A stretch of 63,507 nt of DNA, the filler included, from Hausera hauseri (lineage: Eukaryota), in NCBI GenBank assembly GCA_046269625.1. It is 11 parts of 11 records of this genome, joined end to end, with 100 filler letters (N's around TTAATTAATTAA, not from the genome) between each part and the next. Parts side by side here need not be neighbours in the genome. Positions count along the whole stretch, not along the records: positions 37,175 to 42,815 come from JBJURY010215410.1; positions 42,916 to 49,134 come from JBJURY010123762.1; positions 49,235 to 53,318 come from JBJURY010771538.1; positions 53,419 to 59,436 come from JBJURY010152644.1; 7 more parts are not named here. The stretch is one strand, 5' to 3'. A program made the position numbers and the translations under genes. Under the pieces are notes generated by a model. The model had not been told where the DNA came from and did not search any database. It worked only from the letters and a program-made list of their open reading frames with translations. This document shows, one piece after another, positions 26,755 to 60,388 of this stretch. Position 1 is the stretch's first letter; each line of letters begins with the position of its first letter.

Positions 26755-26755
26755 G

Positions 26756-37174: not shown

Positions 37175-37920
37175 AATCGATAACCCAATTTGCTTTTGCC
37201 TTAAAGAAACTGGCAAACAGTTATGTGAGCACCTTAAGGATTTCAAACATAGCCAAGGCTAAAAATGAAGCAGAACGTGAAGCCGAAGAAAAGTCAAGTC
37301 CTCCCGATTTGGACGTCATGATGATGACGCAGTTACTAAATGGTATTTGGTCTAAAGACATAGTAAAGCAATTGATTCTAGAACGTCCCGAGAATTTTGA
37401 TAGGACGTTGCAATTAGCTCAGGACTTGGAGATGTCATAGGATAGATATGCCAGAAACAATGATAGATATGATCGAAATAATGGCCAAGCTGATCGAAGT
37501 CATAGGAATCGCAATAATAGAAATGATAGACGATATAATAAGAATTATGGAGATCTGAACAGGAATGATAATTGTGACCGTAGGAACGATCGATACAATA
37601 ATTAGAATTTTGGTCGAAACAGCCCATTTAGCAAATTAAACTACAATGCGGACAGATACGCAGACTGTCCAAAAAACTTTAATAATTAAAGTCGACAGAA
37701 GGACAATCGGAATTATGATAATCTCCAATATGGACAACCAAGACAGGCTCCACCGCAGCAAACTTACAATAGAAATCCGAGTAGATCTAAATCTCCATTA
37801 AATAAAAATGGCCGTCAAAGAGTTGGAAGAAATGGCAATTTATTCTGTTTTACATGTGGACAAGAATGACATATAGCGAGGTCCTGTCCGAATCCGCGAA
37901 GCGTCTCGTTTGTGGAACCC
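37175..37920 (+). pseudogene. gag: Gag C-terminal part (capsid C-domain, R/N/D-rich tract, CCHC knuckle)
   Basis: ITQFAFALKKLA, QLLNG..L...PENF...LQLAQDLE, CFTCGQE*HIARSC at ~37845. Confidence 0.8.
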
Positions 37921-40900
37921 AGCAAAATTAACGTAATTAGAAACGAAAATTTAGAAGCAATCTATGGCGTTTGTTGAGACACAGGCATGGTTATCGAGAT
38001 ACAATATTTACGACGTTTTTTGAAAAACCAGCCTGATACTGATGACCCCAAAGTTCTAGTGGCTAGAAACGAATATGAGCACAAATTACGATTAATGGAA
38101 GTCTATCACGGTCTACACAAGCCACAAACAGAATATAAACGTTTTATCGCCCCGCCAAGGCTTACTGATATGGCACGGAAGAAGAACCTTCCGAGGACAA
38201 GCAAAGAGTCAGGCGAAATGGAGAAACCTTAGACTCCGGATAAAATAACTATAGAGGTAGAGCCAGAGCATACTATAAAAAAGATAATTGAGGAAATAGA
38301 CGTCGAAGAGAAGGAAGAATTCCTAGAGCCGCTCATTCTCAAAATTACTAAAAACAAAGGCCGTAGTCTCTCGTTGAAGCGAAAACGCAAGGATAGATCA
38401 AGATCTCCCATGCGCAAGTCGAGCACAAAGAAAGAGGTCGAAATCGCACCAAAAAGCGACATCGAGTGCGCCTCAAACTGTCCAGAAATTAGTTTAGTTA
38501 CGCCCGGAGAAATAGAAGAACTGATAAAAATTGCAGATAAAATAAACGATGTATGTCCGATAACTACTAGTGAGGAGGAAACAGAACAAGAAGAGAAACT
38601 TGATCCTAAAAAGTGGAAAATCAGGCGCTCGTGGAAAAATTTCGAACAGTTAAAAAGCATGAGGGAAAATTGTCACAACTTAGAGGTATTACAACAGAAT
38701 TTAGAGAAACTCAAAGCAATAAGTGAACAAGTAGATATTTCGGGCAAAGAACAGCAGATTGTAGAGATACTGTATAAAAAGATGAAACTATACAGTGAAG
38801 GAAAGCTAAGTGAAGCCATAGATTTGGATCAACCCGATGAAGTTGCAAAAGAGACTCTGGCACAATGGAAACGCACATTAGAGCGCTGGATGAAAGTTGG
38901 GACGAAAAATCTAGAGACATGGGATAAGACCACCCAAGACATTGAAACTAGAATCAGCCAGGCTCAGTCGCTATTAGCAACATTAGAAGCCAACCCGAAA
39001 TTAAAACGAGCGGTACATAATCTAAAGCGTGTAATGGATAAAATTAGATTCATCATAGCTGAGCAACTAAAAAAGAAACCGGTTAAAGAAAGGACTGAAA
39101 CTGATCTGGAGATGTTGGGTATAGATTCCTTAGATATTCCGCCTTTAATGGAGATGATAAAAATCGTTTCTAATGCAACAAGGCAATATACCAGTCTGGG
39201 AAGTCGAAAAACTGTCGCAGATAAATAGTCTAAGGAATAGAATTATGTACCCAAATAACGATGAAACACGGAGAATAACTGTAGCTTGTGTCCTGGAATT
39301 TAATGAGCATGAAGAAGAGTTTGACTATGCCTGTCGGATCATTGATTTCATTAAAGGCCCAGATGATGAACTAGAAGACGCCAACAAGATGTCAAACAAA
39401 GCGATACTGGCAAAGCCAGATATCAGGAATCAAATGAATGAGTGGTCCAAAGTAATAACAAGTTTGAGCGAATTAATAAGTAGCCGGATGAACGAATTTC
39501 CGCAAAGCGAATGTAGAGTAAAGAGGCAGTTGAAGGAAGACGCCCAAAATTTAGATACGATGAAAGCAGAAATTGACATCCGAACGCAATTCAAATCCTT
39601 ACGCCTGTTGGATTTTATGGACAGGAAACAAGAAATAATGATGCTTGAGGACATATATAAAGTGATCGAAGAAACAAACTTTACACAAAAGCGGAATGAG
39701 ATTCATGACCTTTATCCAAAATTAAGAAAAGTCCGCCTAGAAGGAATTCAAAATTTGGCCACCAAGCCCATAGGAGAAATATCCGTTCGTGACCTTAAGG
39801 CATTAGACGTTTGTACCAATCACCAGTCAACCCTCGAAGAGATAGTGGCGTTTTTACATCAACCACAGGAAGGAATGCCTGGAGCCGACCGAAGGTATCA
39901 TATCGAATTAACTAAAATAAGGAATGACCAACATCTGAATTTTGAAGAAGTTAAGTTCATAAAAAGGCTACTTGATGAAATAGACCCCGACTCCAGAGTT
40001 ATTAATGAGATGTATGACCTAGTACAACTAATGGTGGAAATGGCAGAAATCAGCGATGAGAAATTAAGACAGCTGCTGCCACAGATACGACAAATTGAAG
40101 AAACTAATATCAAAACCAAACAGAGAGCGATGAAATTTGACGAACTAGCCAAAGAACTCAAACCGTATAAAGTTAAGTATGCTCTTACCGAAGCAGAGAA
40201 GGTTGACAAGTCGCAATTTGTGCATAAATGGCAACTGGACGTAGCTTCCGAGTTAACTAATTACCAGGAAAAGGGATTTATATCAGCCGAAGAATTATGA
40301 CAGCTGCTAACCGTACTACGTCAAACTTCTGGAAATTGATGCTGTTTCCGAACCACCAAAATGGTTATAATGCAACAGAAGCTACGAGAACTTAGAGCAA
40401 CCGTAGAGATTGCGGGTGCAAATAGGTCGACTGACACACTACCGAGAAGTTATTCATTACCGGATAATGAAAATGAGCCAGATTGGGAGGCATATCTAGA
40501 TGCCATGATGGCCGAAAATCCGAAAACCCCCGTGCGATTGAACGAAACAGAGGTACCGTCGCCGGACCAGAAATTCTGTGTAGAAATGCTCTTAGATCCG
40601 GTACAGACTGAAAATGAACTATTTAGGTTAATCAATGTGAACCTCACTGAAAAGCAATTAATACGGTTGGTTCCCACTTTAACCAAATTGGCCAGCGAAG
40701 GTACAGTTTACAGTGCCGCGCCAAAACTTTTAATCAAAGAATATGCTGAATTTCTAAGGACAAGGCCCGAAGAGGGAATTAAAGTAAAAATAACGGCAGA
40801 TTGGATGGATGAAAAGGAAGAAGAGTTCACTACGCATTCATCCGTGAAGGATGTATTACTATGGATAACGAATAACGGTTACACCCACGAGCTGAACTAT

Positions 40901-41718
40901 AGGCTATATTTTAGAGGAAGAATGCTTGACGAGTCGGAACTATTGATAGAAGTCGGAATCATTCCTGACGAGGTGAACCGGTTAGTGGTAACCATCGCTA
41001 ACAACGAGACAAAAGAAGAGGCTATAAGGAAGGCAAAGGCCGAACAGCCAATAGGACGAATAATAGGAGTCCGAGACGCGGTAGTGTATTTTGAGTACCT
41101 ACAGACAGATGAAGATCATGAGCAATACGATAAAAATTTGGTACCGATTAATGTCGGTATACTTGTTGTAACGAAACAAAAGCGACCTATTGGTAGGCCA
41201 CGGAAGATACGGGAAGAAATTGACTATAATGGAGACTTGATCAGAGAAATGGGGCAGATATCCATATTAAACTTTAGTGCAGATAATGAGGAACTGAATG
41301 AACTAATGAAAGATTGGATACGAATGGTAAATTACTCCAGTTTGAACGGTGATGTGTTAGATAAAAAAAGGCCATATTAAATGCCGCCAAGGCCATGAAA
41401 GGCATCCGGTGTAAATTATCTAAAAGTACCTTAAGCGACAAAGCAACGATCGAGAAAATTATGGTGGAAAATACCGTGGAGGAATTGAGAAAAGTGATGC
41501 TATATTTAGCCATCAAAACCAATCCGAATCGCAAAAACGAATTTAACAAGGCTGCCAGTTTAGCAAGGAAGGCTGCCAGGAAAATACCTCGAGAGGTGAA
41601 CTGGTCTAAGCTATTCGAAAAAGAGAAAGAACCTAAAGGAGAATTCTTCTTAGACATCAACAGGCTCGGTGACCTGCTACAAAACGTAGCCGGAAACCGC
41701 AGAGGAAACGAATCGATT
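37921..41718 (+). pseudogene. Region X: long charged helical protein segment with ubiquitin-like domain (40778-40996) and AT-hook-like motif (41180-41206)
   Basis: ORFs 37987, 38374, 39173, 40361, 41395; conserved in copies 2 and 5. Confidence 0.75.
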
Positions 41719-42815
41719 TGGCTAATCAACCTCTTGACCATTATGATGCTGATAAGACAGATAGGCGCCGTCACTGTACATGATTGTCACAGATTTAGAC
41801 TTGGCCAAAAATACTCCCTAATGGACTTGGAAATGTGCGAAGATGCGAGACCACACAAACTGGAAACAAAGGAAAAAAGTTACGTGTATTATACCAACAG
41901 CGCGAACTAATTACATTAGATAGAGTAGAGTGTATGTTGAGACGATCCCGAAGCATCTTCCACTGTGGACTAATACATAGACACTCGTCAATAATTAAGC
42001 CAACCATCCCCCTAATTCTAATGAATTTAGAGCGTCAACATTGCAAACAAACCAGAGAAACGGGAAGAATAAAATGGGATGGAATGGAATTAGAGATGCA
42101 ACAAGGGAAGATAATTAGAGTGTATAAGGTGGTAGCAGGAAGGCTGGACATGCACACTGGACATTGCCAAGGCACAGAATATGATACGGGAAAAGGATCA
42201 GAGTCAAACGTCGTGGTAGTGGATTTTTACGAAACCGAAATGCGCATACAAAAAGTGATGTTTCATAGCGTTACCAAGTTCTATACCGAGAACCACAAGT
42301 GTCGCGTTCAGGATGGCACATGTCCATTTCGAAGTTCAGTAGTAATTTGGGAATCACCAGCTAAAATTGATTGCAACTTCATTAGGATTAAAAAACTTAA
42401 ATTCAACGAGACGACCGGAAAACAGTACATAACTAGTACAGAAACCAACTCTAAAACACAAGAAGATGTAGCCGAACAGTCCACACCCACTATACGGATT
42501 TCTGATACTCATGGATTAAAATTTGTAAAGAAGACCATGCTCACCCGATGCCACGTAGTAATGTATGCTACCAAATATGAAGCGTTTTTTGTAGCCGAGA
42601 CTGAAATAAATGCCCGAACGTTCAAACTCAAGACTCAAGACATCCGAATTGAGGATTATGTGAAGAACAGAGACGATTACTTTTATTATAAAGGAAAAGC
42701 CGGAATAGCCGAGTTGTACCACAAGATGATAACAAACAATTGTAAATTGGACTTGGAAATCATGAGAACTAAATTAGCTCTAATCTACGCCAATCCGGAG
42801 CTGGCGTCACCAATA
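41719..42815 (+). pseudogene. env: Chuvirus-like glycoprotein (N-terminal half)
   Basis: WLINLLTIMMLIRQIGA/VTVHDC, RSIFHCGLIHRHSSI, GHCQG, NVVVVD, VVIW..DCNF, LYHKMITNNC. Confidence 0.82.
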
Positions 42816-42915
42816 NNNNNNNNNNNNNNNNNNNNNNNNNNNNNNNNNNNNNNNNNNNNTTAATTAATTAANNNNNNNNNNNNNNNNNNNNNNNNNNNNN
42901 NNNNNNNNNNNNNNN
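42816..42915. other. Assembly linker
   Basis: 100 bp N-TTAATTAATTAA-N. Confidence 0.97.
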
Positions 42916-43754
42916 TTTTCATCTTTATACGCAACTCTGAATCTTTTTAAAAACACAAAATCAATTTCAAGTCTTGATATCTAATTATATTTCTTTTTTA
43001 TGTACATTCACAACGCCTTTCTTTTCTTTACAATTAAAACAAACTCATACAAGTCATATATAAAAAACTCTATACAATTGACATGAAGAAAATTCATATT
43101 ATCACATAATTTACAATCGCAATTTAATATTATCAATTTGATAACTACAACGATGAATATATACAATTTATTACATAAGTTCGCCAAATCCGCCATCCAC
43201 ATCGCAATATATCATCGTTCACCGTCTCAACTCCCGTCATTTTTTGTTGATTATTTTGGTGCATACAAGCCAAATTTTGTTTAACATGTTCAAGAATAAA
43301 TTCTGAATCTGGGATACCTGACAATTTATACATCCTGGTACTGTTTTTTGACAGTAGAATAGTGAATATCTTCTCAGCATTCCAAATACCATTTCTACAA
43401 CCCATGATTTTTTCTACGATGATAATACCGATTTCTAGAGATTTAAAAAAATAAATTTCTCAAGTCTCCCAAAGATCTCTTCGAGTTTTCATTGAAGGTT
43501 ATGATTCCGACAAAGAAGCCCGGAGTTTATAATTGTATTAGTCAATCTGACCTCCATTTGTTCATTGAATTACTTGGCAACGGGACTCTTAGATTTATTG
43601 ATGTTGTCTTGTATCTATATTAACTTGCCTTCATAATAATATTAATTTAAGTCGATCTCTGTCCGAAAGATATTTGGCCAACTACCATATCAAACACATT
43701 TAACATAACCATCGATACACGGCATTTAGATGAGTTGGTTTTGTTTGCGATTGG

Positions 43755-44112
43755 TAAGACTATTAATCAGAATCCCGATAACCACAATTGGATGTTTGTC
43801 AAGGCCGAACTTACCATTGCTAAATCCGATTATTTTAAAGCCATGAGATGTTACTTGGAAGCGGGTGCGGCAGCAACGGAATTTTTTACAAATCCCGTGA
43901 CAAAGGAAATCTATACTGATTGGGTACTGCAACACAATCCGATGCTGCCGTGAGATGGGGTATCATCACTAGGCCATATTTTTCCGTCAATACATACCGG
44001 ATAATATTATCGCTGCTCAAATGGCCCCGGAGGTGACAATTCCAATGATTCGTCTGATTTCTATGTCCACTTGATGTGGGATATTAATCTCATTGAGTTT
44101 CTTGTCACCATT
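43755..44112 (+). pseudogene. INTS8: Integrator complex subunit 8 C-terminal fragment (frameshifted, with stop)
   Basis: AMRCYLEAGAAATEFFTNPVTKEIYTDWVL...RCC..MG...MWDINLIEFL resembles INTS8 YLQAGAVCSDFF..VP.DVYTDQV...KCC...IWDVTILEYL (from memory). Confidence 0.7.
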
Positions 44113-44124
44113 GTATACGAATAT

Positions 44125-44277
44125 TATTTCACACTGGTCCTATTTAGTAAACTCCATGGTGAAATTTCGACTCTCGATGATCTGATTGAACCTGATCCGG
44201 CCTTCAGGTCACTCCAGCAGATGATTTATTATAATGAAAGCGATTTCTCCGACGTATTTCGCTTGTACTATGAGGTT
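44125..44277 (+). pseudogene. HECT E3 ligase domain fragment
   Basis: YFTLVLFSKLHGEISTLDDLIEPDPAFRSLQQMIYYNESDFSDVFRLYYEV fits HECT F..vlyKL.G...tL.DL....P....SL..ll.Y.....d.f.l.f.v. Confidence 0.6.
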
Positions 44278-45189
44278 TATTTGGAAAACGCAGCAAGAGT
44301 CTCAAGTAACAGAGCTGATAACATGGCAAAACAACCCATCTACTATATGGACACTCTTTGCAACCTATTCAGCGAGAGTATATTATTAAAATGTTGTATG
44401 TTTCTTCTTTACTGGAGTCGGGGTTTGATTTAATCAGAAATAAAGACTCGAAGTACTCGAATTTATCTGGTAATAACGCATGCATTCTGTCAAGTAGAAC
44501 AAGAGAAGTAAAGAGAAAAGTGAGTCAAAACCTCCGTTGGGTTACATACTATTTTATCGTGAAGCGCGGAGGAATATTACACGCGGTAATTCAGAGGAAA
44601 GAATATGTCAGATTTGACAAAATCCGGTAGACGTCTTACAATCACAGATATGTAGACACAGATTGGTAGAATTTTTGTTGCTGATTTGCGCTCACCAGTA
44701 CAATAATTTTCTACATTTATACAAATTACTAATAGTTAACATCAATTTCAATTTTAAAACGCCTTTCAGTTCAGAAATTTTGGATATTTTATCACAATTA
44801 ATATTTGCTACTATTCTCCCGGCTGCATACTCAAACCTTTTCAAGGTCAGAAAAGAAACTCTCCCAGGCCCACACGCACCAACGTTCTCCTTGCATTGCT
44901 TCACAGCAATTTTCCTTTTTTGTTTTCAGCAATAATCAATATATAAAAACAATAAGAGCTCCACTCAACGACACATCACAGCCCTTATACAAATCTGTCA
45001 TTTTTATTCAACACTTTTGACTGCTAATTCACATATCAAGGTCTTACTATGCACTCTTCCGACTCCCTCTCACTGTTCACACGTTACGAACATCCGATCA
45101 TCCATCTCTCTCCACTTTCGCTTTCGGGGTGGATCTGACCCAAATCCATCTTTCTCAGATGATACATCTACAAATACATGTAATATCTA

Positions 45190-46550
45190 TCGTTTATCAA
45201 ACTCTTATCAATCACGAGCCTCGCCAAATCTGCCTTGTGTGGATTTTTTTTTTAAAATAATTTCAGTAGACCAAGGCTCCAATTCCACCAACAGTGGCTA
45301 AAATCCAACATTACTGACTCTTGTGCGAGCCAACAGTCTTGATTTTTCTTCCTGCCAACATCAAGCAGCAGATCAGTAACATTTCCGAACTGTTCCAATT
45401 CTTGACACCTTACAAAAAACTGAGTCTAGTCTATATCACTGATCCATCGATAGACAATATCATACAAAAATACTTCAATGATCATGTGATAGGAAACCAA
45501 AAGCCATCCGACTTTCTCCAGACTGCCATATTGCATAGTAGTGTCTTAGGCGTAACGCATACCAATAACGCAGACTTAATTCGCCGTTATTTCTTGTCAT
45601 CTTTGCCCACCTCTATCACAGCTTTGCTTATTGTCGTCGACGACTCTACGGCTATTGAAAAACTGGCTATAATGACTGATAAGTCCTTTGAAATCCTCCA
45701 TACAAGCAATACTCTTCCAATTGCGGCTGCAATTACACATACGCCAAATATAGACACCACATCTTTCGCTCAACAATGTCAAATGATGTAGCAACAATTT
45801 GATACATTACAGCTGTCAATTTCGGCCATTACCACCTTACTAAACAATATTAATGGGCCTCGACGAAGTGAAGCTAGGCCTTCAAGGGAGCGAAGTCTTT
45901 CAAGACACTCCTCGATCAACATCCCCTGGTGGACGTATGACTTGCTTCTATCATATACGGTTTTGAAAGGATGCAAGGAAATGTTTCTTGGGCTATCGGT
46001 TTTACAGCGAACGATACGCTGTGGACAACCCTATCTGCATCTACCACAATAAGTATCAATAACAGGCCAGATCATGTGTGCCTGGTTGCAAACATTACAA
46101 AAATAAATTTTGTACTTTTTCTTCTCCCTTTTCCCCAAACCCTTTAAAAAACTAGTAACCCAGCCAGTTTTCACAGCACATTCTGGTATAGGCAATACAT
46201 TACACTTTTCTGGCCGTCTTAATACCACCTCTGCACTCTCTCTGTTGAAAGCTGCAATCTTCTCTGACGATTCATCTAATATAGATTTTCCCATCGACTT
46301 TGGAGCCGCCTTTTCGCTTTTACCGCAATCTTTCACGCCAACGTCAATTTTTCTTCGCCTCAACTCTTCGCAGCTAGTGGGCAGCCTTTGCGCATTGTTG
46401 GCATCACAGAGCTAACTTGTACCTTCTACAGCTTACCAGACAAGTTTGCTTGGAAGTTCTTCATTGCTAACATAAAGTCACCAATATTGGCTCAGATTTC
46501 CTGTCCGCACATGATCTATTAGTTGATTGTAAATAAGGCTGTTTGCTGCA
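45190..46550 (+). mobile_element. CsRn1-like Gypsy gag-protease remnant
   Basis: IGNQKPSDFL, YFLSSLP, KLAIMTDK, CFYH.RF..ARKC, FPIDFGAAFSLLP, KFAWKFFIANIKSPIL..DFL..HDLLVDC. Confidence 0.8.
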
Positions 46551-46760
46551 CAGGAATTCAATCGCAAATCCAATCAAATCTAAGGAAATCTAGTGAGCAA
46601 TTCATTGCACTCATCTGTAAATATACTGAACACCTCGTTAACTATTGACAAAACTTTCAATAATGTTAGTATTCTTTTAATTATGAGTAACAATCAGAAA
46701 TCTATTTTAAAACAAAAATCCAAATTGAATGTTGACAGTGGCAACGCCAGTTGTTCTTCG

Positions 46761-48632
46761 TCAATTACTGCAACTGTTTTTTCCGATGATATGTGGAAGG
46801 TTCAAAACAGATTTATTAATAATTTCCATATTTATATCATGGTACAGACGTTTGCTGGGCCCATAACTAGCAAACATTATTCCACTTTTAATACCATTTA
46901 ATATTAATTTTGTTCTTCTTTTCGAGTCCCATAATCCCCATACCGGCTTCTTTTGTGTGAAACAAATGATCACTTGGGGAGAAAATCCCTCTCCACATTT
47001 ACCCTCTTCTGTATCCAACTTTATCTCACTAGACCCATCTATTTTGAATATCCCCATAATTTCCCCATATCCCTTATCCAAAATATATAAATATAAAAAT
47101 ACATCTACATTAAATTTGCCATCATACTTGACCATTGTTAACGCAGTGTCCCTCTGCGGGGGTATGAAACCACCTTTAAATTCATTAGTCGGTTCAAACA
47201 TTCTGATTTTAGCACACATACGATCTCCAGCGGCATTCATAAGAACGAAAAACCAACGAACAACCAGAATATTATTCATATAACATCTTGATACCTGAAT
47301 AAGTCTCTCTTGATGTACAACTTTAGATTGAATTTGATTTGTAATATTGGCTCTGTTGTCGTTTGAACCCGAAGTAACATATTCTTTCGTCAGCAACTCC
47401 GCATTTCGGTCGTTCTCACCCGTACACTCGTTTTTTTGAAATTCTCTGAATATTTTTAATGATAATTCGGAATATAATGTTTCAACGACGTAATAAAGGT
47501 AGTACCTGAATAAACCTTCTACGATTTTCTCGTTCGTATCAGCTTGTGTAATCCCTTCTATTCGGAAACGACCCATTATCAGTGATACCGGACAAAACAA
47601 TCGAAATAAATTCATACAGTGTATTTTTCCCGTGCTTCTCGACCCTTTGATCCCAGTATAATTAAGATCGGATAATATCGGTTCTAGATGAACAAGGATT
47701 GTATCCGAGACCGTCTCTTCGGCTTCTTCATGATCTATGGGTTTTGAATAGTATGCTTGAAACTCTTTTGGGATATATCTCCACCTTCTTATGCATATCG
47801 TATCAGTGTCCAAATAAATAGGGAACGAAATTAGTTTGAAATTAATGTATATAAAATGTCCTTCCATGATTGTATTATATATAGAACCTTTTCCTTTATC
47901 ATAGTATTCGTGCACACACATTAAAGCAGGTCCAACATAAAGGTGAAAGAAAAACGGATAGCGGTATATTTGGTTAAGGCAAAGAAACTCTTGCATGGTT
48001 TTCCAATGTAAATCAGGTTGTAGGTGTCGTTCAGCCAATTCAAAGTAATCACCTTGTAGATAAAGTATTTGGCCAATACATAGAAGTTTTTGCTTCTGTT
48101 TCCCATATGACTCAATTTGTATGTGTCTTTCAACCAACTCAAAACGATCTCTTTGTAGGTGTAGGAGTTTATAAACATGAAGAGTTAAATAAATTCTGTG
48201 AAATTCATATTTATCCATGATAATTTCATCGTGAACATAATTCTTTACTATCTCAAGAAATATCTTCTTAATTTCGTTGGATACATCAATTTCTATAGTC
48301 ATTAATCTCTGTTTAATACTTTCCATAAATGACCTATCATCCGTCTCCGATATGTTTTTTCTTCGTAACACATGTATTCTCGCTTCTGGAGATACCCATT
48401 CATCCAAGACAATAGGATTTAACGTTATGGTCTTTATCTGACCTCTATGAAATGAATGGATAACATTTTCAAAACATCTGAGTCTTCGTGACTCACTGAT
48501 TTTGAACATATTTTGCATTAAGTCGTTTAGGAATTCATTATTCCTTCTTTGAAAATTAAAATTAAATTTCAAATATGAATTTTTAATTTGCATCAATGCC
48601 AATTCTATAGCTATTGCTATAGTATATTCCAT
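46761..48632 (-). CDS. Intact 623-aa hypothetical protein, intronless, with internal 33-aa tandem repeat
   Basis: ATG-to-stop ORF of 1872 bp in very AT-rich DNA; no recognised domain. Confidence 0.7.
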   Translation of the reverse strand: MEYTIAIAIELALMQIKNSYLKFNFNFQRRNNEFLNDLMQNMFKISESRRLRCFENVIHSFHRGQIKTITLNPIVLDEWVSPEARIHVLRRKNISETDDRSFMESIKQRLMTIEIDVSNEIKKIFLEIVKNYVHDEIIMDKYEFHRIYLTLHVYKLLHLQRDRFELVERHIQIESYGKQKQKLLCIGQILYLQGDYFELAERHLQPDLHWKTMQEFLCLNQIYRYPFFFHLYVGPALMCVHEYYDKGKGSIYNTIMEGHFIYINFKLISFPIYLDTDTICIRRWRYIPKEFQAYYSKPIDHEEAEETVSDTILVHLEPILSDLNYTGIKGSRSTGKIHCMNLFRLFCPVSLIMGRFRIEGITQADTNEKIVEGLFRYYLYYVVETLYSELSLKIFREFQKNECTGENDRNAELLTKEYVTSGSNDNRANITNQIQSKVVHQERLIQVSRCYMNNILVVRWFFVLMNAAGDRMCAKIRMFEPTNEFKGGFIPPQRDTALTMVKYDGKFNVDVFLYLYILDKGYGEIMGIFKIDGSSEIKLDTEEGKCGEGFSPQVIICFTQKKPVWGLWDSKRRTKLILNGIKSGIMFASYGPSKRLYHDINMEIINKSVLNLPHIIGKNSCSN

Positions 48633-49134
48633 ATCTACAGATATCGCTTATTTAATTGTATAAATGTACATTGATTTGTACATAATAAATGTAATATTAA
48701 TCATAAATGGGAATTCCCAACTTTTACGTGTATAAATACGTACATCCCGACATAATTTTCAAACTTCCTTGTTGAGTAAAAACTCATGTTAGTATCAAAC
48801 AAACAAAACATTGATTTAATAATGTCCATTTTTCTATTGTAGATCCGAATAAAGACAAAGCTGTCATATTTAAATTTTCCAATTGCGTTAATTTCTTTAT
48901 TGACAAACGTACCTTCATCTTTCTGGTCAACACTATATTTTGCACGTATCTCTCGGTGGTAATTTCGCCTTCAATTTTTAATTTGGATTCCTCCTCTTAT
49001 TTCTTCTCAGAGTTTATTTCCAATTACGTTTCCACTTTTTACCAAATGGACTCTTGTTGGAATCGATGGCAAGTCATTGTTAAGTTCCTCTTCACTTGCC
49101 GTACTCATCGTGAAATCTAATAGACCACCAGGAT

Positions 49135-49234
49135 NNNNNNNNNNNNNNNNNNNNNNNNNNNNNNNNNNNNNNNNNNNNTTAATTAATTAANNNNNNNNNN
49201 NNNNNNNNNNNNNNNNNNNNNNNNNNNNNNNNNN
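49135..49234. other. Assembly linker
   Basis: 100 bp N-TTAATTAATTAA-N. Confidence 0.97.
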
Positions 49235-50990
49235 GCAAGTTGAAGTCCGGGTATTGTAAAACTGGTTCGCGTGTTAGAATCTTCTTCATTTCGTCGAAAG
49301 CTTTCTGTTTGACATCCGATTATTTCCATTTAATTCCTTTCTTAAGTTGGCGATACAAAGGTGCATTTACTATCGAGTTGTCTGGCACATAAGAGGCATA
49401 ATATCCACATAAACCTAGTCACTGTCTTAACTTCCGATTTTATGGCTCCATGTCATCTTATATGTTGTCCAATAATGATTTTTCTGGCACCGATCCTCCT
49501 TCTCCAACTATATGGCCAAGGTTGGATACTGCGTTTTGAGCCCCTTTGCATTTCTTTGGGTATAATTTTAATCTTAATTGTTTCATTTGCATCATTATAT
49601 GCTCGACATCCTTTAAATGTTCTTCTGTTTTTGACGCTATTATTACATAATCTAAGTACACAAAAGCGTTGTCCTGTCCCATTAACATTTTATTCATCAT
49701 TCCTGTAAAAATGGTCGGTCCGGTAGTAATGCCGAACGGCATAACGTTAAATTCATAAACAACATCACGTGTTTTGAATGTCGTTTTATAACGGCCTTCG
49801 TCCTCGATTTCTACTTGCCAATATCCAGATTGTAAATCCAGAGTGGTAAACCATTTTTCACCTGAAAGCTTGTCTAGAGCTTCGTTTGCTGATGGCAGTG
49901 GGAAAGAATCCTTCAACATAAGACTGTTCAGTGTTCTGTAATCAATACAACATTGATGTTTTGTAGTACTTTTCTTTTTAACCATAAAGACTGGCAAGTA
50001 CCAAGATTTGTAGCTGGGCTTAATTATGTCTGCATTTAGAATTCGTTCAACTTCTTTTGTTGTCTCAGGTCTTTTGTTATCTTGTTGTCTCAGAGAATGA
50101 GATGGAGGTTACCATTTCGGCATCTTCTGGTCCTCAAGATCTATTTTCGGGCTTTTTCTTAAGCGGAATAATCAGTCTTAAAGTCTTTGCTCTACAAATA
50201 TCCTCGTCGTCTTTAGCAATAATAAATTTATAGTAGCATAATAATTCGTAGAATAGACAATAAGACTCGTGTGAAAACGTAGTTTCAACATGAGGTGGAA
50301 TTTCAGCATATTTGAAAGGTTTTTTTCAACAGTTATGGACGACACTCTATAAGTATTTTCCAAGGTAGTATAAGCATGTAGCTTGACTGGGTCGGTGCAT
50401 TATTCGCTATTCTGATCGGCACACGGTCTGACTTTACTCTTGCCAATATATTATTGATTACTATATTCGGAATTAACGTTTTCTTTGGTTCGAAATATAC
50501 TGGTTGGTAATAATCTTGTTGAATTTGTGCATAAATTATTATCTCTGTTCTCGATGGAATATTTTTGTCTATTGGAATCCACACTTCTCCAAATTCCCTA
50601 TCTTTAGCAGTTTTTACGCTTTTTATTGGTTTAATCTCTATTAGTTTTCCTGCTTGCATGTCGATTGCTACATTTGGTAGTATTTTAGCAGGTCGCAACC
50701 TAAAATTACATCATCAGTTAATTGTTCCATAATTGCAAATTCATAACAGTAAAACAATCCAAGTATATGAACCTCTGGCTTCCATTTGACTATCGGTTTT
50801 GACATTTGGCCAAAAGCGCCTGTGCTTTTCGGGATCTATTGTTGATGGTGGATACAACTGTCTTCTTAACGTTTGAGGAATTGAATCATTCTTGATGTAA
50901 GACGTCTGAGAACCTGTGTCTATTAAGCACAAACTTCCCAATCTTCTGTAGTGACTTTGGCAAAGGGTCTCCCTTCTATTTCTGTTCCGA
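49235..50990 (-). pseudogene. pol: Protease + reverse transcriptase
   Basis: GRPFAK, LIDTGSQ, CIDYRTLN, FTTLDLQSGYWQV, MPFGI, YLDY (mutated YLDD). Confidence 0.92.
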
Positions 50991-51455
50991 AGCAATTTGA
51001 TGCGGCCTTTGGGCGTTTAATTACCGATATTTTATGGCCGTTACTTCTGATTTCTGAGGAGGATACTATGCATTCCGACAGTTGTCTTAGTTCTTCATTT
51101 TGGTATAATTCGTTATTTTCAGTATTCGAGTTTTCCTTTTCATGAATACTAATTAGTGGTTCTCGGTTGTTCGTATGTGGTTCTATATTTTGAAAAGTTT
51201 GAAACCTTTGATTTCCCCAGACAGTTGGTCTGATCTCTATATTTCGAGGTTCTCTTGGAGAGTATAAGGTTCTAGGACCGTCCGTAGGCTCTCGGTAGAG
51301 CATTCTTCGTAAGATTCCATATCCTTTCATCCCTTTGTAAGGGTCTTCGAGATTAATCGTTCTCTTATAGATTTCTGTTTGATATGAACCCTTTGATCGC
51401 TTATCACAGTTTTCGTAGACTTGAGCAAAAGGGGGTAGCATGGGCAATGGTACCT

Positions 51456-53212
51456 TTATGATGGAATATGTTTTATGTCTATCAATTTTAAATATGGTTT
51501 CTCCGAATTATTCTTTCGTGTTTTGGGCTTAGGAAGCTTTCGCTTGTACAAGAATATAGGTCTCCTTTTCCGTTTGTGATTATGGTAGCCTACATTACAT
51601 TCTACGTCAATTTTCCATCTGCTTTCTTCGTATGCCTTTAAAAACTTTTCGAAAGGCGTTATGATCGCAGTCAAGATTATACATGAGAATACAGCCAATG
51701 TAAACATTTCGTATCCGTTAAATACTACTTCGACTACTGCCTTAATTAGTTGTATTAAGAAATATATGGCTGGAAATTCAGATGCGGCTTGTCCAAAAAT
51801 TAAAAATCTTCCCCAAATTTTATATAGTATTTCCGTGGTTACTCAATGATAATATTTTATACCGAGCAAGGATTACCATTTGGTTTGGTATCTGGTATCA
51901 TCTAATACTGAGGCAATGGCTCGATATAAGTCGAATCCTTTGTCGTAGAAAAGGGAGAAATTGTCTAAAGGCTTCAATTTCCTTTTGTCTATATATACCT
52001 TTCGATGATTCATCCTGGAATTTATCATCCGTTATTCGTCTTACGAGGTTAGCTCCTGTTAACTTAATTGGAGCGGCAGTAATACCTCCATTTGGTAAAC
52101 TTACTCAATGCGTTTCGCTACGTCTAAACATTGGTTTTCCTAAACTTGTTTTACACTGTTTAAGGATTGTTGGCCGAGTCGCATTATGTAACAGTACTCT
52201 AGTAAGTGGCATGGCTAACCGAGTGGTATTCTGGCAATTCTTGTATGCACCGTTTTTCTTCGACAGTAATTGATACATCTCTTTTCTCACATTTGTAAGT
52301 CAATAAGACTTCGCCGGTAACTCGACCAAAAATTTCTTCTCCTATAGGAATTATTGGTGATGCTAACTCAGGATTATCAAAGATGAGAGCTAATTTTGTC
52401 CTCACAATTTCCATGTCTAGTTTACAATCGTGCGTTATCATCTTGTGGTATATATATGCTATTCCAACTTATCCTTTGTAGGAAAAAATAATCGTCTCGG
52501 TTTTTCAAAAAATTTTCGACACGAATGTACTGCGTCTCTAGTTTGTAAGCTTTCGTACTTATTTCCGTTTCTGCGACGAAAAATGCTTCATAGATAGCGG
52601 CAAACACCACTACTTTGCAACAGAAGATCATTTTGTTTTTAATAAATTTTTGTCCATGAGTGTCAGAGATTAATACAGTAGGTGTAGAGTGTTCTGCTAC
52701 ATCTCCGCGTCTCCTTGTATTGCTGTCGAATTTATTCACATATCACTTACCGGTAATTTTATTTCCTTGATTTTAATAAAATTACAATTTCTTCCAGAGG
52801 GAGGTTCACATATTGTAACTGAACTTCTGAAAGCACACATGCTATCTTGTAAATAAAATCTTTGATTCGCGGTATATATAGTTTAATGACGCAATGAAAC
52901 AATGCCTTCTGTGCTCGCATTTCTATTCTTAGAAATTTACGACCATTACGTTTACTTCTATTACTTTACCGGCGTCATACTCTGCACCATTACAGTTTCC
53001 ATTATGCATGTCTAACCTTCCGACTACTACTTTATATGCTCTAATTATTTTTTTGTCTTTTTTGTCTCCAATTTGTGCGGTATGGCGTCTTCACACATCT
53101 CTAAGTCCATTAAGGAGTATTTTTGTCCGAGTTTAAATTTATCGGAGTCATAGTCTGTGACGGCACCTATCTGTTTTACTAACGCTATCAAGGTAAGTAG
53201 GTTGATTAACCA
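51456..53212 (-). pseudogene. env: Chuvirus-like glycoprotein (internally deleted)
   Basis: WLINLLTLIALVKQIGAV, YSLMDLEMCE, GEVLLTYKC, CIQELP, TM-region FTLAVFSCIILTAIITPF. Confidence 0.8.
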
Positions 53213-53318
53213 TTTGGATTCGTTTCTTCGGCTGTTATTATGCGTCATCGTCAGATTACGTAACACATCTTCGAGTCTCTTATTAATATAGGACCGTTTG
53301 TCTTCTTCCTTATGGAAT

Positions 53319-53418
53319 NNNNNNNNNNNNNNNNNNNNNNNNNNNNNNNNNNNNNNNNNNNNTTAATTAATTAANNNNNNNNNNNNNNNNNNNNNNNNNN
53401 NNNNNNNNNNNNNNNNNN
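53319..53418. other. Assembly linker
   Basis: 100 bp N-TTAATTAATTAA-N. Confidence 0.97.
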
Positions 53419-53759
53419 ATATTGTTGATTTTGTTTCTATATTCCGAGTTATTCTTGGTGAGTGCAATATCCCGTGGTCATCTTTCGCTTGTCTTTGGTT
53501 AGTGATATGCATTTTCTTTAATACTCCATATTGTTTTGTTCCTTCAGAAGAATCTTCATAGCTGAAGGGTTTCTGATAGAATGCCGATCTATATAACATC
53601 ATCGATGTTTTGTCACAGTCCTCGTATATCGGAGCCGTTGACGGCATGATAGGTAAGGGTGCTATAATTACGGAATACATTCTATGTCTATTTTGTCCAA
53701 GGATTGCATCTTCTCCCTTAGGCTCATCATCATCTGAATTATTTCTTCGTGTCATTGGT

Positions 53760-55683
53760 TTCTTATCCTTGTGTTTTAATTGAAATATGGGTCTTGCTCG
53801 ACGTTTATGATTATAATAGCCGACCTGGCGTTAAACGTCATTTTTCCATCAAATCTCTTCATACGCTTTAAGCATTTTACCAAATGGTGTGATAATTGCA
53901 GTTAGTATTTTGCATGAAAATCCAGTTAACGTAAATATGTCGTATCCATTAATTACTGCTTGGATGACGGCCTTAACCATCTATATCAGAAAATATATTG
54001 CTAAGAATCCAGATGTAGCTTGTCAAAAAATTAAAAATCTTCCCCAAATTTTGTAAAGTATTTCCGTTGTTACTCTCTAATAATGGTCTACGCCAAGTAA
54101 TGATTTCTATTTAGCCTGATATCATGTATCATCTACCATAGCTCGATTTAATTCATGAGTTTGCTGTCGCGGAAAAGCCAGGAATTGTTTGAAGGATTCG
54201 ATTTCCTTCGGTCTGTATATGCCTTTCGAGGAGGTGTCTTGGAATTTATCGTCTGTAATCCCTTTTGCAAGATTAGTCCCTGTTAATTTATTTGGAGAGG
54301 CAGTAATACCTCCATTTGGTAACCTAACCCCCAATCCGTTTTGCTACGTCTAAACATTGGTTCACCCAAACTTGCTTTGCAATCCTTCAATATTGTAGGT
54401 TGTGTTGCGTTGTCTAGCAATACTCTAGTGAGAGGCATGGCTAACCGTGGGGTATTATGGTAGATTACAGGGAGTTCTTGTATGCACCGTTTTTCCTCAA
54501 CGTTAATTGGTACATCTCTTTTCTCGCATTTGTATGTCAGTAAGACTTCACCTGTAACCCGATCAAAAATTCCTTCTCTCATGGGAATAATCGGTGAGGC
54601 TAACTCCGGGTTTGCATAAATGAGGGCTAATTTTGTTTTCGTGATTTCCGTATTTAATTTGCAGTCATTAGTTATCATTTTGTGGTATAGTTCGGCTATT
54701 CCAACTTGTCCTTTGTAATAAAAATAATCATCTCGGTTTTTCAGATAATCTTCGATTCTAATATCTTGCATTTCTAAGTTGTACGTTTTTAACTTTATCT
54801 CCGATTCTGCGACGAAGAACGCTTTGTAGTTAGCGGTAAACATTATCACTTCATACCATGAGATCATTTCCTTCTTTATGAATTTCAATCCTTGTTGATC
54901 CGAGATTAATATCGTAGGTGTATGATGCTCTGATACATCTTCACGTGCTCTTGAACTGATGTCGGATTAGTTTACGTATCGTTTTCCGGTGGTTTCATTA
55001 AATTTCAATTCCTTAATTTTAATAAAATTACTGGCTTTTCCGGTGGGCGGTTCCCATATGACGACAGAACTTCTGAAGGCACAGGTTCCGTCTTACATGT
55101 GACACTTCTGATTCTTATGATATAATTTAGTGACGCTATGAAACATTATCTTTTGAACTCGCATTTCCGATTCGTAAAAATCTACTACAACTATGTTTGC
55201 TTGCAATACTTTTCCGATATCGTATTTCGTTCCACTACAATGCCCGCTATGCATATCCAACCTTCCGGCTACTATCTTTTATGCTCTGATTATTTTTCCG
55301 GGCTGCATTTCTAATTCCATGCTATCCCATTTCAGTCTTCCGGTTTCTCGGGCTTGCTTGCAGTGTTATCTTTCCAAATTCATAGGAATCGGAGGGGTTG
55401 TCGGTTTAATTATTGAGGAGTGTACGTGTATTAGTCCACAGTGAAAGATGCTACAAGATCGTCTCAACATACATTCCGTGCCATCCAAAGATATCAATTC
55501 TTGTTGTTGGTATAGGAAATAACTCTTCTCATTTGTTTCCAATTTGTGTGGTCTGGCATCCTTACATGCTTCTAAGTCCATTAGTGAATATTTTTGTCTA
55601 AGCTTAAATCTATCACAATCATAGACGGTAACAGCACCCATTTGTTTTAATAGCATCATTAGGGTGAATAAACTGATTAACCA
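53760..55683 (-). pseudogene. env: Chuvirus-like glycoprotein
   Basis: WLISLFTLMMLLKQMGA/VTVYDC, SIFHCG, LYHKMITNDC, GEVLLTYKC, CIQELPV, PLTRVL. Confidence 0.82.
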
Positions 55684-58600
55684 ATTTGATTCATTTTTCC
55701 TGTTGTTATTATCCCTTGTCGTCAGGTTCCGTATGATATCTTCGAGTCTATTGTTACCACTTCTCTTGTCTTCTTCTTTGTCAAACAGTTTTGGCCAATT
55801 TACTTCACACGGGAGTTTCCTAGCTGCTTTTCGTGCCAAATTTGTGGCTTGGTTTAATTCATTTTCTCGATTGGGATTTGTCTTAATTGCCAAGTACAAT
55901 AACACTTTTCTTGGCTCTTCTATCGTATTTTCCACCATAATTTTCTCAACTACTGCATCGTCAGTTAGACTACTTTTTAACAGTTTGAAATGCGAACTTT
56001 TCATTGTCCTGGCTGCATTAAATATTTCCTTTTCTTTGTCATTTAATGTATCTCCGCGGAGACTCGAATAATTTACTATACGTATTAAATTTTTCATTAA
56101 CTCGCTTAATTTTTTATTATCTGTACTAAAAGTAGGAATCGACATCTGCCTTAACTCTCTAATCAGTTCTCCATTATAGTCAATTTCTTCTCGAGGCTTC
56201 CTAGATCTGCCGACTGGGCGTTTTGGTCTTGTGGCATTGGTTGGCATTCTACTCAGCGGTACTAGTTTCTTGTCATATTGTTCCTTATCTTTATCCGTTT
56301 GTAAATACTCGAAATACATTGCCGCATCTCGTACTCTCATGATTTCTCCTACACATTGTTCCGTTTTAGCATTCCGTGTGGCTTCTTCTTTCGTCTGTTC
56401 ATTGGCTATTATTACTATTATACGATTCGTTTCATCGGGGATAATTCCGACATCAATTAACTGTTTTAAATCGTCGAGTATTCTTCCTCTAAAGTAGAAT
56501 CTGTAATTTATCTCGTTTGTTCCACCGTTCTTTAGTAACCATTCTCTTACGTCCTTAACGTAGGAATAAGTAGTCAGCTCACATACTTTTCCTTCCATCC
56601 AGTCAGATGATATCATTATTTTCAGCACTACTTCAGGTTTAGTTCTCAAAGTATTTGCATACTTCTTTATCAGAAGTTTTGGCATTGTGTTGTAAATTGT
56701 ATTCTCGCTATATAATTTAGTTAAGGTCGAAATACGTTGTCTGGGCTTGCTTTTAGTCATATTCACATTAATTGATTCCATCAAGTCCCTTTCAGTTAAC
56801 TCTGAGTCTAGGAGCATTTCCACATTGAATTTCCTGTCCTGCGGATACATTTGTATTTCATCTAGGTGTACTGGTAGTCCGTAATCTACAAGAGCTATGT
56901 TCGTTCTTTGCACATTTTCTCGAACTTCTTTCAGTCTTGGTTGTATTTCTTTAATCTGCGTAGTTCGGAAACCTATTCCGTTTCCACATGCATATTGAAT
57001 CATTTTCAGTAATTCGCCTAACTCGTTAGAATTGATGAATCCCTTTTGATAATAATCGGTTAATTCGATAATTACATCTCTTTGCCATCTTTGTACAAAT
57101 TCTCTCTTATTTTTTATTTCTGATTCCGTAAAAGCGTATTTGTTCTGGTAACCTTCAAACTCTTTTACTAGTTTATGCAGTCACGTTGCTCTTTGTTTTG
57201 TTTTGATGCATGTTTCTTCAACTTGTTGTATTTTGGGCATTAATTGTCTCATCCTTTCATCATTGATTTCCGCCATTTCTACCAGTAAATAAGCTGGCTC
57301 ATACATCCCATTTATAGTTTTTGAGTCGGGATCCATTGCATCCGACAATTACTTCACGAACTTGTGTTCCTGAAAGCTAAAATGTAGGTCGTCTCTTATT
57401 TTTGTCAACTCGGTATGAAAATTCTGAACTGATCCAGTCATCCATTCCTGTGGTTTATGCCAGAATTTTATTGCGTCTTTTAACGTATCTCGATGTCCGG
57501 GACAGATGTCTAAGATTTCAATGTTTTGGGCGGAGATCTTGTCGATCGGTTTTTCCGTTAAGTATTAGATTCCTTCTAGTCGAGCAACCTTCAACTTTGA
57601 AGTTACATTGTAAATCATGTTCCGTTTTTCCGTGAAGTTCGTCTGTTTGATTAATTTATAAATCTCCTTTAATATCTACGTTTCTTGTTCTCTTTTCATA
57701 AATTTTAACCGTCTTAATGCTTCGAAATGGGTGCGGATATCTATTTCTATTCGCATTGTGCCTAGATCATGTGCACTTTCTTCTAGCTGCTTCTTTACCA
57801 TTGGGTCGTTTTGCGGAAATTCTTTTTTGCGGTCTTCTACTGATTTGCTTAGTCGGTTTACTAACTCGGACCATTCCGGCAATTGATTTGCGATTACTGG
57901 TTTCACCATTATAGCCTTATCTAACATCTTATACGCATCGTTTAACTCATCGTCCGGTCCTCTTAGGAAATTCATAATCCAACCGACATAACTAAACTTG
58001 TCCTTATATTCGTCCAGTTCTGCGATACAAGCTTTTATTATATATTTCGTTTCTTCGTTATTCATGAACATGATCCGATTTCTTAAACTACTGATTTGTG
58101 ACCTTCTTTTATTCTCCATTTTGATGCGGCTCTTTAAGTCCGCACATTGTCTGTTTTCGAGGAAGGCAATTTTTATCATCTCCATTAAGTGAGGAATATC
58201 TATCGGGTCTACACCCAATATCTCTAAATCGATACTACTTCGATCGCTAACCGGTTTTTCTCTAAGGCGATTTATCATTATATAACGTATTTCGTCCATC
58301 TTACGTTCTACGTTACGGGCTACTCTCTTCAACTTAGGATTAGCTTCTTAGATAGATAGCAGTGTTTGCGCTTCAGCAACTTTTACACTAATATTATTTT
58401 CGTCTTTATTCCATCCTTCCGAAAATTCTACTCCACTTTTAATCCACGACTCTAATTCGTGGTTCCATTTTATCAACGTATCTCGTGGCGCCTCTTCCGG
58501 TTGTCTTAATTTAATTGCTTCGTCAAGTATCCCATCACTCCACAATTTTTAAATTTTGTATAATTTCTCCGCAAACTGTTGTTCTTTACCAGATATGTCT

Positions 58601-59436
58601 GTTTGTTTACTGATCTGTTTAAACCTCTCTAAATTGTGTCGGAGTATTTCTGGATCGTGACATCTAATTCTTGTCTTCTTTAATTCATCAGCATTCTTCC
58701 ATAAACGTCGAACTTTCCATTTCCTTGCATCAGGATCATTATTATCGTCCGTTTCTTCCTCACTAGCGGGAAGCGGACAAATTTCATTTATTTCGTCATT
58801 AACATTTATCATCTCGGGTGTCTCCAACACTTCTGGAATCCCTATAGGCGTAGTAGAAATATCTGAGGATGAGTTTGCGGTGTAAATATCTTCTCTTCTT
58901 TCTATGTTCTTTTTAATGGGCAAGCGTGAACGAGTTTTAGATTTTCTCTTAGGCGATGGGCTTCTACCTGTATTCTTCGTTATCTTGAGAACTAAGGGCC
59001 CAAGAAATTCGCTTTTGACTTCATCCGTTTTTTCATCTGGATTATGCGTCACGACTTCTATTTCTGCGTTTAAGTCTACATTTTTAGATGTCGATGGATT
59101 CTCCGATTGTGCTATTCCTTGTGGAATAGACTTCTTACGCGCCATATTAGTATTATTTGGTGCTAATGCCCATTCTTCTTCAGTTTGTGACTCTCTTAAT
59201 CCATGATAAACTTCCATTTGTCGTAATTTCTTTTTATATTCTTTTCTAGTGTTCATTACTTGAGGATTAGTAGTTTCACTTAGATTTCTTAAAGATCTGC
59301 GTAAATCTTGCATTTCGATAATCAGGCTTATATCTCCTCGTTTGCCATATATGGCTTCTAATTTATTCTTGATCATACTTGTTTTGTTTGGTTCAGTAAA
59401 TGTGACACTACTAGGATTTGGGCATGACCTAGCAAT
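55684..59436 (-). pseudogene. Gag end + region X with ubiquitin-like domain (56407-56625)
   Basis: Homologous to 37860-41718. Confidence 0.75.
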
Positions 59437-59536: not shown

Positions 59537-59713
59537 CCCATCATCGCTGGTGACGAAATTGGAACGTATGCGTCAACTCGTCGCATACAAGGATATTATG
59601 CACCAAAATCCATTGACATTTCTATGTAAAAATTATTGTGTGGACTGTCTTAGACGTCAGTGAACATATATTGTTACAAACTTTGTTGTGTTAATAAATG
59701 TTTTGTTGAAATA

Positions 59714-60230: not shown

Positions 60231-60388
60231 ATGTGTTATGAAATTAGTTGGTCTTAACCTATACAGTAGTTACTTAATTTTACTTGGCCTTATCCTATAT
60301 CCCACAATATTTGATTAAGATATTATATTGCAACACGACATTTCTATACAACATTTATTAAACAAAGAATAACAGTGAATAACAATAT

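Follow-up and report, generated by a model that had tools for sequence, protein, structure and literature searches.

The question raised by this locus is whether a Ty3/Gypsy element can carry an envelope glycoprotein (G) between gag and pol as part of one continuous polyprotein. The window, i.e. the whole stretch of 63,507 nucleotides from Hausera hauseri that was analysed, consists of 11 separate contigs with N spacers between them, and the element copies lie on separate contigs. Five of the 11 carry decayed subfamilies of one Ty3/Gypsy element (Table 1). These are 64-76% identical to each other and diverged (dS 0.9 to saturated) rather than copies of a single young element, and all five are broken. 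The interval 37175-59436, to which the element had been assigned in a sequence-only reading, also takes in an unrelated contig (42916-49134). We regard the five, with a probability of roughly 85%, as independently decayed copies of several Burro-like Ty3/Gypsy LTR subfamilies with gag, a long region X, G and pol in one frame, likely encoding one polyprotein of ~3,600 aa that the signal peptidase of the host and the protease of the element would cut apart. The domain order, the common frame, the purifying selection on X, its Ubl domain and the uncharged stretch before G are shown by the copies themselves.

Table 1. Element features in the window; contigs S1, S4, S7, S9 and S10 carry copies 1 to 5, S5 a sister family.
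Feature	Position	Strand	Support or remark
S1 (copy 1): X end, signal, G, linker, PR, spacer, RT, RNase H, integrase	197-6099	+	
S1 PR	2749-3051	+	
S1 RT	3637-4206	+	
S1 3' accessory region	6100-9925	+	one window copy; repetitive in run X1
S1 RING finger	9551-9688	+	
S4 (copy 2): X and G ectodomain	21113-25514	+	
S5 5' end: LTR-end-like TCA, TGG primer-binding-like site (26746-26758), gag with knuckle	25615-26758	-	
S7 (copy 3): Gag capsid C-terminal part, R/N/D-rich spacer, CCHC knuckle	37177-37887	+	one frame, premature stops
S7 CCHC knuckle	37846-37887	+	zf-CCHC E 0.0024
S7 region X, from knuckle to signal stretch	37888-41715	+	
S7 helical bundle and ubiquitin-like module in X	40595-40993	+	relatives-only profile E 6e-8; UBX E 0.029
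S7 internal signal-like stretch (41716-41769), then G ectodomain to contig end	41716-42815	+	PF24664 E 5e-24
S9 (copy 4): X end, signal stretch, G, TM and tail, linker, protease, PR-RT spacer, RT	49461-53318	-	RVT_1 E 7e-27; PF24664 E 2e-11 and 4e-6
S10 G C-terminal part, TM, basic tail, start of G-PR linker	53419-54330	-	contig stops before PR
S10 (copy 5): knuckle tail, X, G ectodomain	54331-59436	-	one frame, 1,702 codons, 10 stops
S10 uncharged internal signal-like stretch	55633-55686	-	abuts mature-G-like start
S10 all-helical domain where relatives have a Bcl-2-like domain	55790-56154	-	candidate identity
S10 helical bundle and ubiquitin-like domain (Ubl about 56400-56640)	56395-56829	-	profile E 6e-7

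The domain identities proposed from the sequence (zf-CCHC, PF24664 for G, RVP, RVT_1, RNase H and integrase) were borne out. The pol domains of S1 follow each other as RVP (E 2e-5), RVT_1, RT_RNaseH, Integrase_H2C2 and rve, which is the Ty3/Gypsy (Metaviridae) order. Gag up to the knuckle is covered by S7 alone and the RNase H-integrase part (RH-IN) by S1 alone, each a broken copy; the S7 knuckle is interrupted by a premature stop. The capsid part of S7 had no Pfam match and was assigned by eye against the gag of S5, in which Pfam recognises both Ty3_capsid and the knuckle. This gag is without breaks and 68% identical to the natural protein P0012 (gag-knuckle-X'-G). Only S5 has an LTR-end-like and primer-binding-like site; the contigs otherwise end within the element. 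Between protease (PR) and reverse transcriptase (RT) lies a spacer of ~200 aa that can be aligned to the spacer of P0152 and is blank in Pfam, with no dUTPase match. An RT tree (122 rows, 6 short rows left out, quick search) placed the element without resolution; the four nearest rows by path were G-bearing polyproteins, without support.

By its match to PF24664 (best E 8e-29, in S10), G is a fusion protein of the Monjiviricetes type, and it is preceded by an internal signal-like stretch. This stretch occupies the same position in all five window copies and in 15 of 15 relatives inspected, and in S10 the C-terminal part of G has a TM stretch followed by a basic tail. Four window G sequences form one clade (support 100), which is placed within the polyprotein-embedded G proteins and away from 30 of stand-alone size (SH-aLRT 98, 96, 97), a clustering that is favoured by the choice of the polyprotein rows as top matches. 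A full HMMER search with G returned 256 proteins. None of 593-2,000 aa was found among the 1,072 candidates of a word-index search, and the G query met no related loci in JGI metagenome and IMG/VR contigs.

The gag-to-PR stretch is spanned by none of the contigs of the window, and the case for a single frame has to be assembled from overlapping copies. One S10 frame of 1,702 codons holds the knuckle tail, X and most of G with no frameshift. Codon phase agrees at 96-100% of aligned codons in all ten copy pairs, and from knuckle to RT there is neither a stop nor a frameshift that all covering copies have in common; a single stop recurs in two of the five. For PR, spacer and RT there are two copies only, and six breaks in this part were bridged by fewer than 20 alignment columns. 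The six junctions proposed earlier are each in frame in the copies named for them, and the 545-aa ORF said to join X to G is real, being the Met-started part of a 604-codon stop-free frame in S10 (55366-57180). Shared phase, the absence of an all-copy break, the 1,702-codon frame and unbroken relatives thus support the claim that gag, X, G and pol once formed a single ancestral frame of ~3,500+ aa. Its size was also judged correctly, since the gag C-terminal domain through IN measures 10.4 kb, about 3,470 codons, to which the missing gag start must be added. Read across contigs, gag, X, G and pol were likely once one polyprotein of ~3,600 aa.

Unbroken natural relatives encode gag-G-PR-RT-RH-IN as a single protein. 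G is followed by a protease in 11 of 16 database proteins scanned and shares one protein with RT in five of the 16; P0014 (2,146 aa) has knuckle-G-PR-RT-RH-IN in one protein, and P0152 reaches 4,844 aa.

Region X contains a ubiquitin-like domain upstream of env. In S10 this domain matches the UBL of ubiquilin-2 (E 7.7e-5) and has no C-terminal diglycine. The helical+Ubl module of the window recurs in four relatives (hhalign 94%, E 8.5e-8), and the relatives-only profile that detects it (Table 1) was built with no window copies. An alignment search with the Ubl returned only P0029, itself a query row. Directly before G, Bcl-2 (PF00452) is matched by the segments of four of four relatives (best E 7.4e-5) and by none of three window segments, for which hhalign and the relatives-only profile were not significant either. 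The window domain lies at the same place, is helical and has one aligned Trp. An AlphaFold model from 12 rows had a pLDDT of 41.6 overall, 58-74 in the helical+Ubl module and below about 50 in the Bcl-2-position domain, and a single-sequence model of the Ubl-to-signal region, at 33.5, was too poor to use. Foldseek with the 12-row model found nothing at E <= 0.001 (BAG6 Ubl appeared at E 1.1).

The sequence-only reading gave the element at least 14.8 kb. The 10.4 kb described above stand; the other 4.4 kb, 3' of IN, are only likely to be owned by the element. IN and the region beyond it are in different frames in S1. A TM stretch at 7286-7340 probably marks a second membrane protein, although the region shows no similarity to the membrane proteins that follow IN in P0003, P0005, P0011 and P0152 and the likeness is topological only. 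The ORF at 7837-8664 matches RNase_T at E 0.2, and its reading as an exonuclease stays a hint because a PDB sequence search and a comparison with 240 collected proteins were both blank.

It might be argued that the contigs with gag-X-G and those with G-pol belong to separate elements with a common glycoprotein, the single frame being an artefact of stitching. The low identity of the copies, synonymous sites near saturation and the lack of a contig from gag to PR would all fit. However, in the G-pol copies S9 and S1 the final part of X still precedes G in frame, and S10, a gag-X-G copy, retains a post-G linker homologous to the linker into PR. At synonymous sites S9 is moreover closer to S4 (dS 0.88) and S10 (1.15) than to S1 (2.69). 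Together with the single clade of the four G sequences tested and the full order in unbroken relatives, this makes a mixture of elements very unlikely. The chance that X is no working part of the element, but junk picked up between gag and env or an insertion nested there, is smaller still and practically negligible. It is true that Pfam and PDB offer no match for about 860 aa of X (a PDB sequence search with P0001 was blank), that the only database match to X is one fragment (P0026), and that X, at ~1,260 aa including the signal in S10, compares with 219-611 aa in six relatives. The idea is nevertheless largely refuted, because X is collinear and in frame across three subfamilies, with third-position bias and a dN/dS of 0.11-0.18 (four of nine rows unsaturated), and its Ubl module recurs in distant relatives. 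X evolved under purifying selection; of the 27 region-by-pair rows, over all regions, 18 are unsaturated and give a dN/dS of 0.06-0.34.

The layout could also be accepted with most of G translated from a subgenomic RNA that arises by splicing or internal initiation, in which case the open frame across G would serve to make Gag-Pol. Errantivirus env is expressed from spliced or subgenomic RNA, equimolar Gag, Env and Pol are unusual among retroelements, and several copies have Met codons within the signal stretch. Against this, no Met upstream of the signal stretch is conserved across the five copies, and the Gag-Pol product would still have to cross the signal and TM segments. We consider this route to G improbable. 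If a single polyprotein is made, as we prefer, Gag-X would be synthesised in the cytosol, the internal signal stretch would direct G into the ER lumen and then be cleaved, and the C-terminal TM of G would halt transfer, so that linker-PR-RT-RH-IN would come to lie in the cytosol again. The aspartic protease might then release capsid, nucleocapsid, X domains and Pol enzymes. Gag, Env and Pol would arise in equal amounts, and with both polyprotein ends tethered at the ER membrane an enveloped particle could bud. The Ubl and the helical domain, possibly Bcl-2-derived, may act on host ubiquitin and cell-death pathways.

The sequence-only reading recognised the architecture in no described family. 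This was wrong: an identical layout is already catalogued, having been published for planarian Burro/GYPSM1 and for nematode and bryozoan elements (PMC6431247, PMC13524379; our comparison draws on excerpts of these and the other papers cited). As described there, Burro/GYPSM1 has Gag, Ubl, BCL2, env, PR, RT, RH and IN in a 4,873-aa ORF (Arkhipova & Yushenova 2019, PMC6431247), with env in frame between gag and pol (citing Grohme 2018 and Jurka 2007). Compared by description, without direct sequence alignment, the window elements share with it a Gag with CCHC knuckle, a long accessory region with a ubiquitin/SUMO-like domain, a mononegavirus-type fusion glycoprotein in frame, then PR, spacer, RT, RH and IN, a giant single ORF (here assembled across contigs) and a RING finger in the element region. 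They differ from the excerpted description in size (~3,600 aa versus 4,873-5,140 aa, in planarian elements of 25-30 kb) and in knuckles (one seen here, two to three there). Burro has a dUTPase-like spacer and a BCL2-like domain directly before env, whereas here the spacer has no Pfam dUTPase match and the helical domain at the latter place is a candidate only. The MATH, BIR, ankyrin and midasin cargo of Burro had no Pfam match in the window ORFs scanned, from which the 5' and far 3' ends of the element are missing. The contigs here have 30-44% GC, whereas S. mediterranea is more than 70% AT.

Nematode retroviruses reportedly include some with a continuous gag-env-pro-pol ORF. Non-canonical nematode endogenous retroviruses (Sacco et al. 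2022, PMID 35550022, as cited in excerpts of PMC13524379) carry env and pol in reversed order in a metavirus; X is much longer here than in what is described of them. GAG-ENV-POL Ty3/gypsy elements are described from Nematoda, Bryozoa and Platyhelminthes (Chary & Hayashi 2026, PMC13524379), all 36 nematode rows of the table being Chromadorea. As in these 'ancient errantiviruses', a Ty3/gypsy pol is combined with a chuvirus-like/gB-type env between gag and pol, the HSV/gB-type (chuvirus-like) class here being predicted from the PF24664 match (E 8e-29) and the signal-like and TM stretches. With 3 kb of flank counted at either end, the regions in its list measure up to about 18 kb, so by subtraction their ORFs span up to about 12 kb. 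The paper lists intact elements only, and its main text makes no mention of ubiquitin-like, Bcl-2 or fibronectin domains. Mosquito LTR elements have captured the same Pfam glycoprotein family from a chuvirus (Dezordi 2020, PMC7642597), but their pol is described as BEL/Pao and not Gypsy, and stand-alone-size glycoproteins fall outside the clade of the window G.

What remains new is a ~625-aa block in X without assignment and the placement in this host. It is doubtful whether one should go further and propose a separate Burro-like lineage in an animal group other than planarians, nematodes and bryozoans. Such a lineage would have a ~625-aa helical accessory protein of its own under purifying selection, a degenerate Bcl-2 whose tail doubles as env signal peptide, and, 3' of integrase, coding sequence for another surface protein, a protein resembling a nuclease and a RING ligase. 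While the planarian elements are young, the window copies are all broken and for that reason a poor test system. The helical+Ubl cassette before env has been kept across envelopes that are only 25-32% identical, and with these copies the few published invertebrate Gypsy elements that have env inside the Gag-Pol polyprotein are joined by one more family, itself deeply diverged.

The five element-bearing contigs (copies 1-5; S1, S4, S7, S9 and S10) were collinear in their order and 64-76% identical to one another in nucleotide sequence. The window is not one locus: its 11 contigs are separated by spacers of N that hold stops in every frame. S10 breaks off some 340 nt before the protease (PR), and no contig therefore covers gag to PR. 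The codon phase of each copy was followed on the five-way alignment, no consensus being built, and agreed over 96-100% of aligned codons in all ten copy pairs. From the knuckle to the reverse transcriptase (RT) every alignment column was open in at least some copy, and one stop was common to two of the five copies. In S10 a single frame of 1,702 codons, interrupted by 10 stops but never shifted, took in the knuckle tail, the region between gag and the glycoprotein (X) and most of the ectodomain. The trace was weakest at two places: the gag part contained four stops in a region covered by S7 only, and six breaks in the stretch from PR to RNase H (RH), present in two copies, were bridged by fewer than 20 columns. 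RH-integrase (IN), covered by S1 alone, was collinear there with unbroken relatives. The sequence-only reading had proposed a Gypsy element with env between gag and pol as one polyprotein; all junctions it quoted were present in the translations, and the feature is real and had been read correctly.

Features of the window; breaks are stops/frameshifts from the codon-phase trace
Feature	Position	Strand	Content	Breaks
S1	1-10491	+	end of X, G, to IN and beyond	14/6 (within 164-4650)
S4	21113-25514	+	X-G	13/7
S7	37175-42815	+	gag through X into G	8/3
S9	49235-53318	-	last part of X, then G and on to RT	10/14
S10	53419-59436	-	gag through X into G	17/1
AT-hook-like GRP motif	56197-56223	-	between Ubl and helical domain	
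AT-hook-like GRP motif	41180-41210	+	between Ubl and helical domain	
Post-integrase region of S1	6100-9925	+	TM segment with basic tail, ORF, RING finger	
Repeat of ~125 bp	51-175; 27561-27686		common to both places	
Gag of S5	25615-26758	-	unbroken, with knuckle, behind LTR-end/PBS-like site	
S6, Integrase H2C2	33823-34167	+	fragment	
S6, repeat pair	32492-33696		short direct repeats	
DNA polymerase B	10592-16872		two decayed copies, inverted orientation	
DNA polymerase B	59537-63507		decayed	
INTS8-like	43651-44433	+	fragments, PF25756 (E = 5e-16 and 5e-4)	
Open frame	46761-48647	-	628 codons	
Mariner-like transposase	18395-19542	-	remnants, judged by eye	

dN/dS was 0.06-0.34 in 18 of 27 region-by-pair rows, the other nine being saturated at synonymous sites. 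Low ratios together with this saturation indicate that the copies are old subfamilies which diverged while coding and decayed separately later. For X the ratio was 0.11-0.18 in four of nine rows (the remainder saturated); X was therefore a functional protein. In run X1, S1 was matched by 11,032 short contigs, mostly at 90-95% identity and spread over all 30 bins; this fits a many-copy family and gives no copy number. The ~125-bp repeat, which had very high depth in this run, breaks into S1 upstream of G.

The envelope fusion glycoprotein G matched PF24664 (Monjiviricetes_fusion) in all five copies (E = 8e-29 for S10, stops read as X residues). With 1,190 residues of S10 as the query, HMMER found 256 matches among 1.84 billion representatives, 15 of them below 1e-30. 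Among 16 matches picked by rank and length and scanned for domains, G was followed by an aspartic protease in 11 and shared one protein with RT in five. The order was knuckle-G-PR-RT-RH-IN in P0014 (2,146 aa), knuckle-G-PR in P0006 and Retrotrans_gag-G-PR in P0016. P0152, a cluster mate of P0007, lies on a contig of 23.5 kb and is 4,844 aa long. One of ten relatives looked up lies in a bacterial MAG, probably through contamination. A hydrophobic stretch preceded the YDC/FDC start of G in all 15 relatives inspected. Two to six aspartic-protease-like repeats were seen between G and RT or beyond in P0002, P0003, P0006, P0007, P0016, P0018 and P0152, the last with ankyrin and C2H2 matches besides. 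In a quick G tree of 47 sequences (four window, 13 polyprotein and 30 of 70 stand-alone-size matches) the window rows formed one clade nested among polyprotein rows (SH-aLRT 97, 96, 98), a nesting partly due to selection because the polyprotein rows were top matches. In the RT tree the window pair sat on a long unresolved branch.

Including the signal, X is some 1,260 aa long; in six knuckle-bearing relatives its length is 219-611 aa. Its start is of low complexity and is followed by a charged block roughly 625 aa long. Then come a small helical bundle with a ubiquitin-like domain (Ubl), an AT-hook-like motif and a domain made wholly of helices, and last, ahead of the start of G, a stretch free of charged residues. 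Pfam and PDB searches gave no family match for the charged block, and one 150-aa database fragment (P0026) matched it at E = 9e-18. A five-row profile of the Ubl matched the ubiquilin-2 UBL (E = 7.7e-5) and otherwise almost only ubiquitin folds; a profile from four relatives alone picked the two window modules out of 636 tiles (E = 6e-8 and 6e-7). These profiles firmly identify a ubiquitin-like domain in X. Motifs like the AT-hook-like GRP motif precede G in P0003, P0006, P0007, P0012 and P0152. At the place of the last helical domain, Bcl-2 matches were found in all four relatives' segments (best E = 7.4e-5) and in none of three window segments; profile-profile and relatives-only profile tests of this identity were not significant for the window. 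An AlphaFold model was helical at this position with low confidence, and gave no significant Foldseek match. The domain is possibly a degenerate Bcl-2 domain.

The S5 gag was 68% identical to P0012, which goes on as X'-G; S5 is a sister family of the same kind, and probably younger. Its PBS-like site resembles the 3' end of elongator tRNA-Met. Elsewhere in the window, the polymerase B copies are protein-primed (PF03175, with Endonuclease_7) and Maverick/Polinton-like, and the INTS8-like fragments are a piece of a host gene. The 628-codon frame had no Pfam or PDB match, nor did Pfam match a transposase in the mariner-like remnants.

The order, the frame, the selection, the Ubl and the hydrophobic stretches were observed; a route of synthesis and processing we infer from the topology of membrane polyproteins. 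Gag-X would be made in the cytosol; the internal signal would then insert and be cut, placing G in the ER lumen. G ends in two hydrophobic stretches and a strongly basic tail. A single C-terminal TM with this tail would bring the chain back to the cytosol, on the assumption, needed for a cytosolic Pol, that just one of the two stretches spans the membrane, and the element's own protease would free the mature proteins. Env might instead be made from a spliced RNA.

The architecture had been taken as undescribed, but two papers, the only ones that literature searches for the layout brought up, already describe it in kind (PMC6431247; PMC13524379). In Burro1/GYPSM1 of Schmidtea mediterranea, ORF1 of 4,873 aa carries Gag, CCHC knuckles and Smc, MATH, Ubi2/SUMO-like and BCL-2 domains, next an env that matches fusion glycoproteins of mononegaviruses from arthropods and fish, and after it PR, dUTPase-like, RT, RH and IN (Arkhipova & Yushenova 2019, PMC6431247). 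GAG-ENV-POL elements with HSV/gB-type env are tabulated in 36 nematode, 10 bryozoan and nine flatworm rows and are not monophyletic in POL (Chary & Hayashi 2026, PMC13524379, citing Sacco et al. 2022 for the nematode elements). The window element is a GAG-ENV-POL Ty3/Gypsy element and, judged by sequence, would work like Burro. The MATH, BIR and ankyrin cargo of Burro was not found by Pfam in the window ORFs scanned, and Burro was compared by description only; we therefore do not place it in Burro proper. Beyond its integrase, S1 has an ORF that hints faintly at RNase_T (E = 0.2). In P0003, P0005, P0011 and P0152 a protein with signal, ectodomain and TM is fused downstream of IN. What is new to learn from the element lies in the part of X without a family match, in the accessory region 3' of IN and in the place of its host.
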